From IMG/VR virus record IMGVR_UViG_3300009011_000012, positions 25,474 through 89,473 of that record: DNA of 64,000 bases. One strand, given 5' to 3'. Positions 24,399 to 52,247 of this stretch are shown in pieces; position 1 is the stretch's first letter, and each line of letters starts with the position of its first letter. Both the position numbers and the translations under genes were made by a program. The notes below the pieces were generated by a model that did not search any database, had not been told where the DNA came from, and saw nothing but the letters and a program-made list of their open reading frames with translations. This DNA comes from a virus.

Positions 24399-25598
24399 TC
24401 ATGCGCCACCTTTTTTAATATATTCCATAAACATCTTTTCCGCTTGCGTCGGTGCTGTTCCAGCCATCACTAGAGCGTCAATAAACGACTGCTTCTTCAG
24501 TGCGAACTGATCTGCTAATTGCTGCTTGAGCATCTTGTTCTTTTCTTTCTCTTTCTGCAATGCTGCCTCCTTCTCGGCGGCACGCTTTTTCTGAGTATCA
24601 GAGAGTTTTCTGGCTTTGGTGAGCTGCGTCCGGAGCTGTTCTATCTTCCCAGAGCCCTTAGCAAGCTTCGAGCTCAGCGCGGCCTGGCGCTTTTGGTAGA
24701 TATCCCACTCGCGCTTAGCCGCGGCAACGTTCGTTTTGGCGTTACGGTTACGGCTAAATTCTTTCTCATCTGTTTTGCTGAAGTGCTGTGTGGTGCGGCG
24801 CTTATCATCGCCAAAGGCAATCTGTGTCGCCGCTTTCTGCATGGCACGGGCAATACTCAGTTGCCAGCTGGACGACTGCAACCGCGTGAGGGAGTGGATA
24901 ACATGCTTACACGCTACACCCTGTAACTTGGGGTTTTTAATTTTGGGGTAGGCGTACTCTTTCGGCGGTGCCAGCGCGAAATTACCCGCCGTGGCAATAT
25001 AGCGATACCAATATTGGTGACGGCCGCAATCGCAGTCGAACGACACTCGACCAGCGCAAAGAGCCTTCGTAACCTTGATCCCGGCCTTCTCGTCTTCTGC
25101 GATGTCCTCCACCAGCTGATCCCATTCCTCAAAACGGAACTTGACCAAGTGGTGCTGGTGGGCCGATTTATCAGAAGCCTCAACGCGGATATTGATCATA
25201 TTGTGCTTGAGAGACAGCGGAACCGCACGCTTAATGCCTGAGCCGTCGTCTACAGCGTTATTGGCACGCTTAATATCTATGGCCTGGCTGGAAGCCACCA
25301 GCTGCGCATAAGTGATACCAGCGGTTTTATTATCGAACTTCTCCCGCGTCTTGCCACGCTGCTTTTCAAATCCCTTCAGGTCATCGAGTGTGAAAAACGT
25401 GCCTTCTTTCTTTTTCCCCAGCTTCAGGATGTCGTCAATAGACCGGTTCTTGAGCCTGCCAGGGGTTAATGTCCGATGGGCAGAGCGACGCTTGCGCGTC
25501 TGCTCCTTGCGTATCAGGTCGAATACCTTATTGAATGCCTTTGGTGATAGCCCATCAGTGATATAGCGGCCATTGTCATTTTTGAGGAATTCAGCCAT
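24399..25598 (-). CDS. gp25-like tail protein with SWIM-type Zn finger
   Basis: CDCGRHQYWYRY...ACKHV; synteny. Confidence 0.75.
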   Translation of the reverse strand: MAEFLKNDNGRYITDGLSPKAFNKVFDLIRKEQTRKRRSAHRTLTPGRLKNRSIDDILKLGKKKEGTFFTLDDLKGFEKQRGKTREKFDNKTAGITYAQLVASSQAIDIKRANNAVDDGSGIKRAVPLSLKHNMINIRVEASDKSAHQHHLVKFRFEEWDQLVEDIAEDEKAGIKVTKALCAGRVSFDCDCGRHQYWYRYIATAGNFALAPPKEYAYPKIKNPKLQGVACKHVIHSLTRLQSSSWQLSIARAMQKAATQIAFGDDKRRTTQHFSKTDEKEFSRNRNAKTNVAAAKREWDIYQKRQAALSSKLAKGSGKIEQLRTQLTKARKLSDTQKKRAAEKEAALQKEKEKNKMLKQQLADQFALKKQSFIDALVMAGTAPTQAEKMFMEYIKKGGA

Positions 25599-44468: not shown

Positions 44469-44876
44469 ATGACGATTCAGCGTCGTGAAGTCTATCTGCT
44501 TGTAAAAGAAACGTACTCTGGCAAGGTCACATACGTTGAAGGATTGCAGAGTGTCAGCAATTACTTTTTCGATGGGCATGCACGAGTAAATGATGATCCT
44601 AATGGTAAAGCAACGCATGAAGAGTTCATGGACGGCATGCGGCCAGCTCAGGTTTTTTACGTGCCTAGCAATACCTCTGGAAAATGGCAGGCTGCTTTCC
44701 ATAGTTTTGGCTGCTACCCGGAAATGGGCGCGCCTCAATTGGAATTCATCATTTTTGTAGGTGCATATTCTAACGACCACGATCGAACGCTGGAGCTGAT
44801 GCGTGAAGGGATGGACCGTGCCTATGAAGTGATTGAAGGCACTCGCCAATTACGTGATGGTGAATTCACAGACTAA
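44469..44876 (+). CDS. Hypothetical protein downstream of c1
   Basis: AAGGA RBS; terminator-like hairpin follows. Confidence 0.7.
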   Translation: MTIQRREVYLLVKETYSGKVTYVEGLQSVSNYFFDGHARVNDDPNGKATHEEFMDGMRPAQVFYVPSNTSGKWQAAFHSFGCYPEMGAPQLEFIIFVGAYSNDHDRTLELMREGMDRAYEVIEGTRQLRDGEFTD

Positions 44877-48334: not shown

Positions 48335-48910
48335 TCAGAATGCCTCCCAATCAGTAGCCATGATGTCGACACCAATCGCGCACCAATCATATCGCGCCTG
48401 CTGTTCGCCATCAGTCATCACCAGTCGTGGCATCATTGGTAAGGACGTACCTGATACCACTTGGAATAATTCGTCCGGCATAAAGCTCGCTACGCTGCTT
48501 TGATCCCCCACCATCCCCATGATCAGCGAGACATATTTCCCTTTCGGCCAGTTGGCCCGTCTTATGTCCAATCCCCGGAGAAGCCAATGGTAAGCTGTGG
48601 CAAACGTAACGCTCTCTTTGGCCAGCTGAATATCCCCATTCGTGGTGGCTTCATGGAATCGTATCGTTCTCACTGCAGCTTCTGCCAATGCCTTAAATGG
48701 TTCTTCGTCTACAGCGGATAGAGTGAACCCAAATGCCGTAACTGACACCCTTGTGCGCGCTCCCTCAATCTGAGTGTCTACGCTGAACTTTTTACGCACC
48801 AGGGCTGTGTAAAAATCATGTTTTTGATTGCTCCAGTCCCACCGGCGACCAAGGAAATCACTGAGCACCTGATCCTGTTCCGATAGCACCATTTCTACAG
48901 CTTTTGCCAC
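48335..48910 (-). CDS. DUF2829 (Tad2-like) domain protein
   Basis: TFATAYHWLLRGLDIRRANW...DIMATDWE. Confidence 0.7.
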   Translation of the reverse strand: MAKAVEMVLSEQDQVLSDFLGRRWDWSNQKHDFYTALVRKKFSVDTQIEGARTRVSVTAFGFTLSAVDEEPFKALAEAAVRTIRFHEATTNGDIQLAKESVTFATAYHWLLRGLDIRRANWPKGKYVSLIMGMVGDQSSVASFMPDELFQVVSGTSLPMMPRLVMTDGEQQARYDWCAIGVDIMATDWEAF

Positions 48911-49300
48911 GTCATTCCCCTTACTGCAGATATGCCGAAAGCCGGTCATACCGGCTCGGTTTCATCACGTCTTACTTGAGTGGCCTATTGGCCGTGAAAG
49001 TCTTCGAATGGTTCAAAATGGGGAGGATGTTATTTGCTCGTCCAGACAATGTTTCACCAACGCTATTCCGAGAGCAAGGACGCTGAATGAATAACACCCT
49101 CTCGATTTTGCGCCAGTCTCTACCTGGCCGTCACACCGAACCGTCGCGATGGTGAATCGCCGCACCCAGGACAGTGGGAGACATTGCACATTCCAGCTAC
49201 CCGAAAAGCAGTAAGACAGCGGTTAAAGGTCCCGCTACTGTTCCGGACTGCTTAATGGGTGCATGTGCCATACACCCAGCCTGCATCGTTACAACCAAAG

Positions 49301-49376
49301 TGGTGGCCCCTGCCGGGTTTGAACCGGCGACCTATCGGTTATGAGCCGACAGCTCTAACCGCTGAGCTAAAGGGCC
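49301..49376 (-). tRNA. tRNA-Ile2 (CAT), ileX-like
   Basis: Full 76-nt cloverleaf, CTCATAA loop, encoded CCA, GGCCC acceptor stem. Confidence 0.93.
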
Positions 49377-49380
49377 TTTT

Positions 49381-49509
49381 TCAATTACGTTTGGGTTTAG
49401 TCTTAGGTTTGCGCAGCGCCTTAGCTGTTTGTTCTACGCAATATGCACCCACCAGTAGCGCCAGAATCGTCCAACCTGGATTCTTATCGAAGAACTCCCA
49501 GAAATTCAT
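49381..49509 (-). CDS. 42-aa membrane peptide
   Basis: Hand-translated MNFWEFFDKNPGWTILALLVGAYCV...; abuts the upstream stop. Confidence 0.55.
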   Translation of the reverse strand: MNFWEFFDKNPGWTILALLVGAYCVEQTAKALRKPKTKPKRN

Positions 49510-49704
49510 CTAAACACCCAATACGTTCAAATTTTTCCGTGACAAGGCTGCTATGACAAACCAGATCGCAGTATTGAGCAGGTTGTAGTAGAGCAATGTC
49601 TTACCTGTGGCCATGTTAGGCTCGGCGAACAGAGCGACCATCAGGGTGATACCTATGAGAGTTATCGAACCTAGCCCGAACACCCTCAAAATAGCTCTTT
49701 GCAT
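49510..49704 (-). CDS. 64-aa two-TM protein
   Basis: AGGA RBS; two hydrophobic segments. Confidence 0.6.
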   Translation of the reverse strand: MQRAILRVFGLGSITLIGITLMVALFAEPNMATGKTLLYYNLLNTAIWFVIAALSRKNLNVLGV

Positions 49705-49726
49705 AACCGTTCCTACATGTTTGATA

Positions 49727-49860
49727 GTGCTGTGGCGCTGGGACTCGAACCCAGATAACGTCCGGCCGGACCGCATGAGATACCCTGGGTTATGATCCTT
49801 GGGTAGCGCTCAACTCCCCCTTCAGGAGGCGCTCTGTTCCAATTGAGCTACATCCACAAC
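49727..49860 (-). ncRNA. tRNA-like RNA with extra arms
   Basis: TAGCTCAATTGGAACAGAGC D-arm, CTGGG-TTCGAGT-CCCAG T-arm, about 75 nt of hairpins between them. Confidence 0.7.
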
Positions 49861-50010
49861 AGGGTGAACCATCCCCCCGGGGCTTCACTCCCCCGATAAG
49901 GTTCTCCTCGCTTAACTCCACTCGGGCCGTATCGCGCTACGGCTTGCGTGGCTACCCGCCCCCACCAGTCGCGATGCCGGACCAGAGGCAAGAATGATTC
50001 ACTCTGTTGT

Positions 50011-50070
50011 GTGCTGTGGTGCCAGGCGCTTATCTTCTGGTTGCTTCATAGAGCTGCAATTCACCACAAC
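50011..50070 (-). ncRNA. Small structured RNA closed by GTTGTGGTG/CACCACAGC
   Basis: Closing stem with two inner hairpins; same CCACAGCAC 3' end as its neighbour. Confidence 0.55.
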
Positions 50071-50164
50071 GGAAAGGACACTTACTGCGAGGCAATGCAC
50101 TCCTTCAAATTGAATGCAAAGTAGACAACCCATAGCACTAAATGACCTTACCTGTTGTGTTCTA

Positions 50165-50193
50165 AAAAAATGCCCACCGTGGGAGATGGGCAA
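50165..50193 (-). terminator. Intrinsic terminator inside the RNA cluster
   Basis: TGCCCA-TCTCCCACGG-TGGGCA-T7. Confidence 0.7.
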
Positions 50194-50215
50194 AGACTAC
50201 ACACAGCAATAATTT

Positions 50216-50348
50216 GTTGCGGCGGGGGTGCCTCCCCCTGCTGGTTCGGTCAGTGAACAACCACCAGCGGCCTCATAAGGAAAAGGTGATATCTAATGGC
50301 AAAATGACTTCACTAATTACCGCGTGCGCTGAGCCGCATTACCGCAAC
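50216..50348 (-). ncRNA. Structured RNA closed by GTTGCGG/CCGCAAC
   Basis: Closing stem, inner hairpins and a 3' GGGGG-AGGCA-CCCCC arm. Confidence 0.55.
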
Positions 50349-50990
50349 ATGAAAACACACTGCCCTGCAAAAACCCTGTCCCCACAGAGGTAGAAAGCAG
50401 TGCGCTTTCATGTTGAGAATGTTTACCGGCGCTTATCCCGGCACGGCCACTCAGGCGTCTGGTCAACCTGGCCGCTGGCGTCTTTTCGAGGCTAAAGATA
50501 AAAAACCTCGCCAGTCTTGCGTCACGTTTGCACCGTGTTTTAGCCCCTTACGAGGGCCAGGCGGACGGGGTTTGAGCCTCACGGGGCATTCTATGCGCGG
50601 GATTACGTCGTCAACCGCGTTCACTGCCGTGACAGGGAGGGCTACATGCCGTTCACCTTCTCCAATTCACTCCACCAGCGTAAAGGTAATAAAACGCATC
50701 AGGAGCGGCCCGAATCGAACTGTTTGTGGATCTTTGCAGTTCACACAAAGAGGATGACCCGTAACAGCCCGAACCTGGCCCACAGATTTATGACTACTGC
50801 CAGACCATCCTCTTTGCGTGCTGCGGCGCTTATGGAACGGCGCATCAGTACAATTTTCTAACATTTTAATTTGTCGGTGCTAATCGTTAGCGAAAGTAGC
50901 AAGCAAATAAGTTTAACCACCAGCACCGACAACAGAATGGATTGTATGTAAGCTAAGCTACCTAATCAACCCTTGTGCGTAAATAAATTA

Positions 50991-52247
50991 TCATTTTCTA
51001 ACAGTGTTGAACTTGGGAGCCTTCTTCGTTTTGGCTTCAACGTACAATTGCTCCACCCCACCGTTAGCGCTATCCCACTGATCCGCCCAAACGCGGCAAG
51101 CATTAATAACTTCGCTACGCTGCTCCCCCTGCATAAACGGGATGTGTTCGTGGAAAGCTGACGGGATACAAGCGACGCTATGTACTGTGTCAAATTTTGA
51201 ATTTCTGATAGCATCCAAAGTCTCAGGACGCATCTTAAGCTCGTCCACTGAAGCTGATTTAGAGGCAACGATACGTGCATGCAGCTTTGGAAACGCATCT
51301 TTGAGGTAGGTCATTATCTTACCGGCCAAGCATTCGTCTATCTCGTTGTTCCACTCTTCAGCAAAACCATCCATTCGAACATAAATCGGCACTCCCCAGA
51401 TGGAAGGCAGGACATCCATTGAAAGAAGAACGGTAGTGCGAATCTGATAATGGATGTTGGCCATTGTCAGGATTTCGGTTTTAAGTGCGCTGGTGGCCGT
51501 CAATCCGTATGGATGGGTATGAATATAACCAACTGCATCATGGCCATTAAAAATCATTGAGAACGATTCAGGAGTCGTACCAAATCCGGCGGCCACATTT
51601 AACTCTTCCCCGATCTGATGGCATTGAGCGCGCAGCTCTTCGACTTTGGTTTCTGCTAGGGTTAAACGCTTATTCGCCTGTGTTAAGTTCGCTGTTTGTT
51701 TTATGAATTTCTGGTTTAGCTGAGTATTCGCTTCTCTTAGCTCGCGGCGCTCCCTTTTGAGGCTCCGATTGTCCTTTTCGAGAGAATCGATCCGCTCAGT
51801 GAGAGTTGTCGGATAAGCTTTCTTGTACTGCTTAAGCTCTGTTTCGGTTGCTACGGATCGAGCCTTCAGCTGGTCGAACTTAAGTGCTACCTGCTCAAGG
51901 GTGTCAGTATGTATCTTGCGGAGGTCAAAAATAGATTGTTCGAGAGTGTCGATGTCTACCGGCGCGTTAAGGACCAAGGAAAGCGTATTCATCGCCTGGC
52001 GGGTTTTTTCGTGGAAAGCTTCGAAACGATCCGCAAGGGCGTTGTAATCCTCAGCCTCTGCGTTCAGCCTTTCATCGAAACGCTCTAACAGGCTATCAAT
52101 GGTCATTAAAGCTGTATCAAACAGTCGGGTAGTCAGATCATCACCAGTAGTCCTTTTCTGGATAAGGACTATCTGGCTACGCATTGATTCAATTTCAGCA
52201 ATGAGTATGTCTTCTTTGGTGGTTTGCGCTGCAGTTGGTTGTAACAT
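50991..52247 (-). CDS. pmgS: PmgS-like coiled-coil protein
   Basis: DDLTTRLFD, NAEAEDYN and WDSANGG match the recalled P1 protein. Confidence 0.6.
   Translation of the reverse strand: MLQPTAAQTTKEDILIAEIESMRSQIVLIQKRTTGDDLTTRLFDTALMTIDSLLERFDERLNAEAEDYNALADRFEAFHEKTRQAMNTLSLVLNAPVDIDTLEQSIFDLRKIHTDTLEQVALKFDQLKARSVATETELKQYKKAYPTTLTERIDSLEKDNRSLKRERRELREANTQLNQKFIKQTANLTQANKRLTLAETKVEELRAQCHQIGEELNVAAGFGTTPESFSMIFNGHDAVGYIHTHPYGLTATSALKTEILTMANIHYQIRTTVLLSMDVLPSIWGVPIYVRMDGFAEEWNNEIDECLAGKIMTYLKDAFPKLHARIVASKSASVDELKMRPETLDAIRNSKFDTVHSVACIPSAFHEHIPFMQGEQRSEVINACRVWADQWDSANGGVEQLYVEAKTKKAPKFNTVRK

Follow-up and report, generated by a model that had tools for sequence, protein, structure and literature searches.

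A non-coding array of related hairpins and tRNA-shaped elements in a P1-type phage-plasmid: a candidate RNase III-processed operon leader

Background

Several kinds of RNA and RNA processing that bear on the locus described here are already known: the release of a prophage small RNA by ribonuclease III (RNase III), the STnc100/PasD small RNAs, the host small RNA RprA, whose processed form acts on ricI, and the leader of the ban operon of phage P1 with its transfer RNAs (tRNAs). The present analysis concerns a non-coding array on the minus strand of a P1-type phage-plasmid, at positions 49727-50870 of a 64-kb stretch of DNA (the window; 64,000 nt, positions 25,474 to 89,473 of the 89,473-bp virus record IMGVR_UViG_3300009011_000012, which carries terminal repeats). 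Positions given below are those of the window unless another record is named.

The 190-nt species of the small RNA DicF has a 5' end that is made by RNase III and is absent without the enzyme, as seen by Northern blotting and primer extension, and a 53-nt species is made by RNase E, according to one report (bioRxiv 10.1101/2023.04.14.536235). STnc100 is described as related to the PasD prophage small RNAs in 10.64898/2026.05.13.724894 and as detected in vesicles in PMC12370729, its own function being unsettled in both. One stem-loop of RprA is named as the seed for hdeD in PMC5861431.

Layout of the array and its three units

An earlier note on this DNA, made from the letters alone, had proposed an early polycistronic RNA punctuated by RNase III-type stems and cut into several tRNA-like effectors. 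The reading favoured here, with moderate confidence, is that the stretch is the non-coding leader of a repressor-controlled early operon, built of exchangeable RNA cassettes from which RNase III would release tRNA-shaped RNAs. In each cassette a long hairpin, always of one family, would precede a tRNA-shaped small RNA. In the order of the presumed transcript the main features are:

50342-50417, minus strand: stem 1, hairpin-family member and probable RNase III site (-38.6 kcal/mol, z -6.46, 0 of 200 shuffles as good)
50216-50348, minus strand: element 1, tRNA-shaped STnc100/PasD-like scaffold closed by GUUGCGG/CCGCAAC (RF02076 20.3 bits over 50161-50372)
50162-50215, minus strand: RprA-like tail, consisting of a linker, a conserved single-stranded stretch and an intrinsic terminator (RF00034 63.4 bits over 50162-50264)
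50064-50159, minus strand: stem 2, best-scoring family member (-33.1 kcal/mol, z -4.14, 0 of 200 shuffles as good)
50012-50070, minus strand: element 2, mini tRNA-shaped RNA with an invariant loop, its closing stem enclosing two short hairpins (also in P1, SPN9CC and Sasha)
49854-50011, minus strand: stem 3, family base with a 129-nt insert, also on a Serratia plasmid (76% identity over 203 nt)
49727-49860, minus strand: element 3, a tRNA look-alike that has both D and T arms (27.5 bits with the Rfam tRNA model, whose gathering score is 29; 61 nt inserted)

The three long minus-strand stems that the earlier note had seen were all recovered by folding, and stems 1 and 2 each beat all 200 shuffles. 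Stem 1 is a near-perfect hairpin with 22 consecutive predicted pairs, and stems 2 and 3 contain roughly 20 pairs or more, broken by small bulges; all three are predicted to form a mostly uninterrupted helix of about two turns, a trait of RNase III substrates. Stem 3 forms a single long arm of ordinary energy (z -1.14, 25 of 200 shuffles as good, tested on 49861-50010). The closing stems of the elements are all predicted, with z -2.81 (0 of 200) for element 1, z -1.97 (7 of 200) for element 2 and z -0.99 (29 of 200) for element 3, and show compensatory changes in relatives.

The GUUG at the 3' end of each stem is also the start of the closing stem of the next element. This doubling, likewise pointed out before, holds in 3 of 3 units. 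When the uncut units are folded, GUUG is predicted to be taken up by the hairpin in two of them (units 1 and 3) and by the element in the remaining one (unit 2); if the hairpin is cut in silico in its 3' arm, 12 nt short of its end, the closing stem is predicted to form in all three. The internal terminator of the earlier note corresponds to an intrinsic-terminator-like site at 50171-50192 followed by seven T. Its broader proposal stands as far as the tRNA-like shape of the elements goes, while the single polycistronic RNA has to be reconciled with a first unit that ends in its own terminator.

A family of hairpins with a common base

Judged by sequence and predicted fold, the stems belong to one homologous hairpin family. 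Hairpins were gathered by local folding of the corresponding gaps of relatives together with P1, JK004 and LLS; 17 hairpins from eight sources have a common base, with CACAAC and an AAG box on one side of a variable tip and a CUU box and GUUGUGG on the other. The 17-hairpin alignment (A2) was dropped for a 13-member alignment (A3, without win_s3, Serr_b, Serr_c and Lecl_a) because A2 misplaced the long members. In the 19-bp basal helix of the 13 sequences 93.2% of the cells are paired, compared with 33-50% in a slid control in which the partner was moved by 1-3 columns, and 13 of the 19 basal pairs have changed on both sides, a count reached by 0 of 500 shuffles. The paired fraction is partly built in because the seeds were chosen as hairpins; the compensatory changes are not so affected.

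A covariance model of the family (R1, with stems 1 and 2 among its seeds) scored 71.4 bits in sense and 25.9 bits in antisense for stem 2, and 54.5 and 25.0 bits for stem 1; antisense scores lie 10-45 bits below sense scores. Together with 14 G-U cells in the 13-member alignment, this argues for an RNA structure on the transcribed strand. An R1 search of the 64-kb window returned stems 1 and 2 only. With filters off, stem 3 was matched at 15.8 bits (E 0.0014) and the segment 50743-50818 weakly, at 12.1 bits (E 0.014 in 1.9 kb).

The family is present in P1, lambda, 9NA-type phages and prophage Qin; members that were not among the seeds come from a Sashavirus (Sasha), Pantoea, lambda and Qin. 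A search with R1 of 100 of the 119 viral loci fetched via element 2 gave 473 matches at E <=0.001 with both strands counted. The match in lambda (44787-44863) lies downstream of Q and upstream of S, at a place which we take to be directly after tR'; it overlaps the annotated orf-64, possibly a spurious open reading frame (ORF) call. The mention in the earlier note of similar pieces in lambdoid early regions was borne out in LLS, Flotzy, SPN9CC, lambda and Qin. A search of Rfam at E <=5 with the hairpins gave only chance-level matches to miRNAs and other families. Some hairpin tips (LLS 2760-2871 and P1 2659-3014, in positions of the locus pieces) resemble an anticodon arm, with a 3-bp G-C stem and a 7-nt CAU-type loop followed by AAUC.

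A probable connection to RNase III

The R1 match in prophage Qin (NC_000913, 1649173-1649257, 42.7 bits) lies between ydfC and dicF. Counting 190 nt back from the annotated 3' end of dicF (1649434) gives 1649245, a position within the 3' arm of the Qin hairpin. This coincidence, which joins a fragment length to homology, is the best evidence for RNase III cutting of the hairpin family, and suggests that host RNase III probably cuts the stems of this phage. The earlier designation of the stems as RNase III-type is thereby supported indirectly, through a family member that stands at the RNase III-dependent DicF end described in the DicF report. The Rfam DicF model itself matched neither the window stretch (E <=5) nor the P1 locus (E <=0.1); only the annotated 'dicF-like region' of P1 is shared in part with the window.

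Stem 2 had also been likened to the T7 R1.1 site. The T7 intergenic hairpin, which we take to be R1.1 by matching the site positions to intergenic gaps of a record that carries no such annotation, has the 9-nt run AAGGUCAUU and 9 of 10 nt of the opposite arm in common with stem 2. Homology to R1.1 was rejected, as R1 finds nothing in T7; what remains of the likeness is a short shared helix.

Element 1 and its RprA-like tail

Element 1 is laid out like STnc100. Its closing stem encloses a short hairpin that follows AAU, a middle part that varies and, directly against the 3' strand, a GGGAGGCACCC-type hairpin; the arms are thereby placed much as the acceptor, D and T arms of a tRNA are. The same architecture is seen in P1, Leclercia, Serratia and LLS. 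The gathering score of the STnc100 model (RF02076, 47) is reached neither in the window (20.3 bits) nor in the P1 counterpart (33.4 bits).

The tail that follows is that of RprA. The RprA model (RF00034) is matched over its full length at 63.4 bits, below its gathering score of 70; the upstream RprA stem-loops are replaced by hairpins of the scaffold itself, with low posterior probabilities at the aligned positions. Over 43 nt that run from the conserved single-stranded stretch to the end of the terminator there is no difference from an E. coli rprA, and the tail was matched at rprA in 5423 of 5426 E. coli genomes. One block of 26 nt does not vary among E. coli RprA, the window, a Citrobacter plasmid and phages LLS and Flotzy, on two different scaffolds: in Citrobacter it follows a tRNA look-alike, not an STnc100-like scaffold. 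In LLS and Flotzy the RprA-type unit lies directly downstream of a CI-like repressor gene. As a source of self-targets the window was negative, with 2 matches to the RprA-like stretch at <=3 mismatches (1.3 expected), one of which is the stretch itself. One Klebsiella phage and seven Erwinia phage records hold 45-60 nt at 80-87% identity to the tail (E ~7e-4), which hints that other phage groups also carry copies of it.

A full match to characterised Rfam families, which the earlier note had named as an outcome that would refute its proposal, did not occur, all scores being under the gathering score (RF00034 63.4 of 70, RF02076 20.3 of 47, tRNA 27.5 of 29). Its statement that the pieces have no assigned function holds in part; it had overlooked that element 1 is an STnc100-like scaffold with the conserved tail of host RprA.

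Elements 2 and 3

Element 2 measures 57 nt. It occurs in P1 directly after trnT, in P7, D6 and SJ46, in the P22-like phage SPN9CC upstream of an N-like gene, and in Klebsiella phage-plasmids and Sashaviruses. At least 119 viral contigs, from unlike phage types, hold its 17-nt core, and its loop is invariant in them. Among 118 copies there are 39 distinct variants, whose closing stems are wholly different yet complementary. The invariant loop has no exact complement in E. coli K-12; sites with one mismatch number 12, compared with 2 for a control pattern.

Where a tRNA has its anticodon arm, element 3 has a capped stem, a long arm with an AUCAUAA loop and a short hairpin. The loop is one base from the CUCAUAA loop of a nearby tRNA:

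49301-49376, minus strand: true tRNA with anticodon CAU, counterpart of P1 trnI (68.7 bits; 85% identity to P1 trnI; annotated as tRNA-Ile in a RefSeq relative)

Compensatory changes affect 6 of 40 consensus pairs among five sequences; the D stem is invariant, the T stem has two pairs with compensatory changes, and the acceptor-like stem has nine pairs and a bulge. ARAGORN in default mode reports no tRNA at element 3, and with introns allowed a tRNA-Glu(ctc) with a 44-nt intron; in the RefSeq relative the element is annotated as a 129-nt tRNA-Met. It lacks the regular cloverleaf, in which a 5-bp stem carries the 7-nt anticodon loop, and we know of no short-intron splicing route in enterobacteria. 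Because the gene finders disagree, element 3 is treated as a look-alike and not as a tRNA. The C4 antisense RNA of P1 and P7, an immunity RNA that RNase P processes, gave no Rfam match at E <=5 in 49000-51200; what likeness the elements have to C4 is presumably one of shape only.

Upstream modules, operator-like motif and genomic context

The segment upstream of stem 1 contains the following features:

50989-51003, minus strand: upstream operator-like copy, at the end of a 418-amino-acid (aa) ORF (0 mismatches)
50941-50969, minus strand: sigma-70 promoter-like site TTGATT-17-TACAAT (consensus match only, 9 of 12)
50871-50932, minus strand: strong hairpin between promoter-like site and operator-like motif (-24.5 kcal/mol, z -4.95, 0 of 200 shuffles as good)
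50849-50863, minus strand: operator-like motif, the 'operator' placed by the earlier note at about 50852 (exact match to the repeated motif)
50742-50820, minus strand: hairpin 0, a diverged family relative with a stem of 20 bp (z -6.43; weak R1 match)
50542-50664, minus strand: module M1, conserved and non-coding, common to Leclercia and Pantoea phage-plasmids (86% mean column identity)
50417-50537, minus strand: module M2, a hairpin homologous to part of the annotated 'dicF-like region' of P1 (loop conserved)

The motif TGTTAGAAAATNNTA has 13 matches in the window at <=2 mismatches, compared with 1.78 expected, and 13 was reached by 0 of 100 shuffles. The operator of the earlier note is an exact copy of this enriched motif and a putative operator. 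TGTTAGAAAAT is well above chance across the window, with 13 sites including 12360, 19491, 26801, 28487, 29156 and 30180; it is a candidate operator of the repressor of this phage, and differs from the P1 operator sequence in JK004. In that Cronobacter phage, at about 2525-2840 of the locus piece, a palindrome resembling loxP and two repressor operator sequences of P1 type, which we take to be loxP and C1 operators, stand directly upstream of a hairpin and a tRNA look-alike. Promoter-like sites in the region number 2, with 2.1 expected, and are hence not enriched.

The hairpin-rich character claimed for 50420-50850 applies to its upstream part, where 50742-50820 is strong; 50417-50670, comprising M1 and M2, folds no better than shuffles (z 0.20 and -0.38) despite its conserved sequence. 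In the alignment with Leclercia and Pantoea, M1 has compensatory changes in two helices, and stem changes in the M2 hairpin are compensated in P1 and Pantoea. M1 contains, at 50625-50650 and in the window alone, a ribosome-binding-like run and then ATG-TAG; this is probably not a conserved start-stop, because Leclercia and Pantoea have AAG in place of ATG. Two wastewater samples of one study, labelled 'RNA-Seq cDNA', each hold one contig of about 250 nt that covers exactly 50457-50710, the rest of the array being uncovered. These contigs are a weak hint of perhaps a stable RNA, though the runs may be DNA; the four assembled runs considered are uninformative on RNA ends or strand.

The array lies on the minus strand between the 418-aa ORF (50991-52247) and two small ORFs; no genes are annotated there in the RefSeq relative, and the stretch is empty in the RefSeq annotations of two relatives. 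Circular plasmids of Enterobacter hormaechei, Enterobacter sp. and E. coli CH468 have 98.8-99.1% identity to window 49200-51000; the plasmid matches listed are all non-mobilizable. The annotation of the near-identical plasmids (repressor, pacase subunits, late promoter activator and a Tad2-family gene) is that of a P1-type phage-plasmid. The order of operator, non-coding array, small membrane ORFs and tRNA(CAU) is common to these plasmids and P1, and relatives have a non-coding gap of 700-1200 bp at the corresponding place, across which the order of modules is mosaic by sequence comparison. Judged from these comparisons, the stretch is non-coding, lies behind a repeated operator-like motif and is the counterpart of the C1-controlled leader of the P1 ban operon. 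Pfam gave no match for the two small ORFs or for a 65-aa ORF within the array. A protein with a Tad2-like (Thoeris anti-defence) domain is encoded downstream on the same strand at 48335-48949 (Pfam 36 bits, cut-off 25), and the RNA array therefore neighbours a counter-defence gene.

Proposed processing and alternative explanations

Transcription would start from a repressor-controlled promoter, and host RNase III would most likely cut the hairpins. The cut is predicted to free the GUUG at the 3' end of each hairpin, which would become available for pairing with the distal end of the element that follows, whose acceptor-like stem would thereby close; the ends may be trimmed by RNase P or RNase E. 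The first RNA to be released would be an STnc100-type scaffold bearing the conserved single-stranded stretch of host RprA and its terminator, and the other two the widespread mini-element and the tRNA look-alike. The phage may in this way make an RprA look-alike from its own promoter, free of host envelope-stress control.

Several observations weigh against this proposal. The seeds of the family were chosen for folding, and its paired fraction is to that extent built in; the energies of stem 3 and element 3 are no better than those of shuffles; and the RNase III cut in Qin is a position computed from a fragment length and not base-resolved. R1 has no match at E <=10 in the whole T7 genome. The promoter scan shows no promoter-like site behind the terminator at 50171-50192, and units 2 and 3 would need read-through, because unit 1 ends in a strong terminator-like site with no promoter-like site after it. 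On the side of targets, the RprA stem-loop named as hdeD seed in the paper on RprA is not conserved in the window, where a scaffold hairpin takes its place, and RNAduplex against the rpoS leader gave unrealistically long duplexes for both E. coli RprA and the window RNA and was uninformative.

The alternative that survives best, which we nevertheless think unlikely, is that the hairpins are cis-acting signals of operon leaders that affect transcription or stability (insulators, signals for pausing or antitermination, or protectors of 3' ends), with the elements as passengers. Hairpins do stand directly behind terminators in operon leaders (stem 2 of the window, hairpin b of LLS after the RprA-type terminator and, we presume, the lambda member after tR'), and in SPN9CC element 2 is directly upstream of an N-like gene. 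The hairpins lack a T run, though, refolding coupled to cleavage accounts more readily for the GUUG overlap seen in all three units, and the Qin member coincides with the RNase III-dependent end given in the DicF report.

A reading as decayed tRNA genes and recombination debris, in which conserved ends are short homologies for module swapping and most of the RNAs have no function, seems to us quite improbable. It would account for the mosaic order of modules, for an element 3 that stays under tRNA thresholds with gene finders in conflict, and for several parts that fold no better than shuffles. Decay would not be expected to leave compensatory changes in the hairpin base, the closing stem of element 2 and the arms of element 3, a loop of element 2 that stays the same across at least 119 viral contigs from unlike phage types, or a 26-nt RprA block that is invariant on different scaffolds.

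It is very improbable that the hairpins work as DNA, forming cruciforms or single-strand structures for recombination or replication. Inverted repeats with conserved ends and variable centres do flank exchangeable cassettes; the 14 G-U cells, however, are A-C mismatches on the opposite strand, antisense scores are 10-45 bits under sense scores, and the loci examined show no recombinase gene in linkage with the array. That the stretch encodes a small protein, such as the 65-aa ORF at 50667-50864, has hardly any probability: the frame is open, starts inside the operator-like motif and lies where one near-identical plasmid annotates a hypothetical protein, but it has no Pfam match and no visible Shine-Dalgarno-like sequence upstream, and the stretch is left empty in two RefSeq annotations. 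These alternatives fit the compensatory changes and the Qin data less well than an array of processing cassettes does.

A bolder version of the processing array, which we put forward as speculative and on balance doubtful, is a plug-in RNA display system of temperate enteric phages, in which RNase III-cut hairpins would delimit tRNA-shaped scaffolds that each present a swappable payload. The payloads would be copied seeds of host small RNAs, such as that of RprA, and anticodon-arm look-alikes, such as the loop of element 3 that differs by one base from the loop of the phage tRNA(CAU), and the hairpin tips would be a second payload site. If this were true, the phage on induction would rewire the small RNA network of the host and decoy enzymes or toxins that read tRNA anticodon arms.

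Comparison with known systems

Rfam and the literature yielded no entry for the hairpin family as such, for element 2 or for a phage RprA look-alike on an STnc100-type scaffold; supplements, possibly with lists of small RNAs, were outside that search. In P1-type and lambdoid genomes such stretches carry no annotation or doubtful antisense ORFs, yet hold evolution-maintained RNA structures that are common to many unrelated phages. Phage annotation would gain from a hairpin family that has a name and a likely nuclease, and such a family would explain the release of DicF- and STnc100-type small RNAs, and the RprA look-alike offers a concrete test case for the takeover of a host stress regulon by a phage-plasmid.

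The early RNase III sites of T7 (R1.1 and others) resemble the window in that hairpins stand between units of a phage early transcript, but they are without the CACAAC/GUUGUGG base of the window hairpins. The likeness to the dicF region of Qin goes further: both are repressor-controlled prophage operons with a hairpin of the same family upstream of a small RNA, the RNase III-dependent 5' end in the DicF report falls at about the 3' arm of that hairpin, and DicF ends at an intrinsic terminator, as the first RNA of the window does. Qin has one hairpin and one small RNA among protein genes, whereas the window has three or four serial hairpins with tRNA-shaped RNAs.

With STnc100/PasD, element 1 shares the layout including linker and terminator, but its tail is that of RprA. 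With RprA, a host envelope-stress small RNA, it shares the single-stranded stretch through the terminator, the 5' stem-loops being swapped for a phage scaffold. The gene for RprA is at the host ydiK-ydiL locus and the look-alike in a phage operon, and control by host Rcs/Cpx is therefore not to be expected for the latter.

The closest counterpart is the leader of the P1 ban operon (annotated dicF-like region, trnA, trnT, tciA-C and trnI), which is like the window in position and control logic. The P1 record annotates antisense ORFs, plp and upl, over these elements, and no RNAs; plp and upl (2402-2971 of the P1 locus piece) run antisense to the hairpins and element 2, and as ORF calls may be spurious. 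The P1 leader has a true tRNA-Asn and tRNA-Thr where the window has a tRNA look-alike, and is without the RprA-like tail. Common to both are the hairpin family, with four members in P1, element 2, the STnc100-like element, part of the 'dicF-like region' and the tRNA(CAU).

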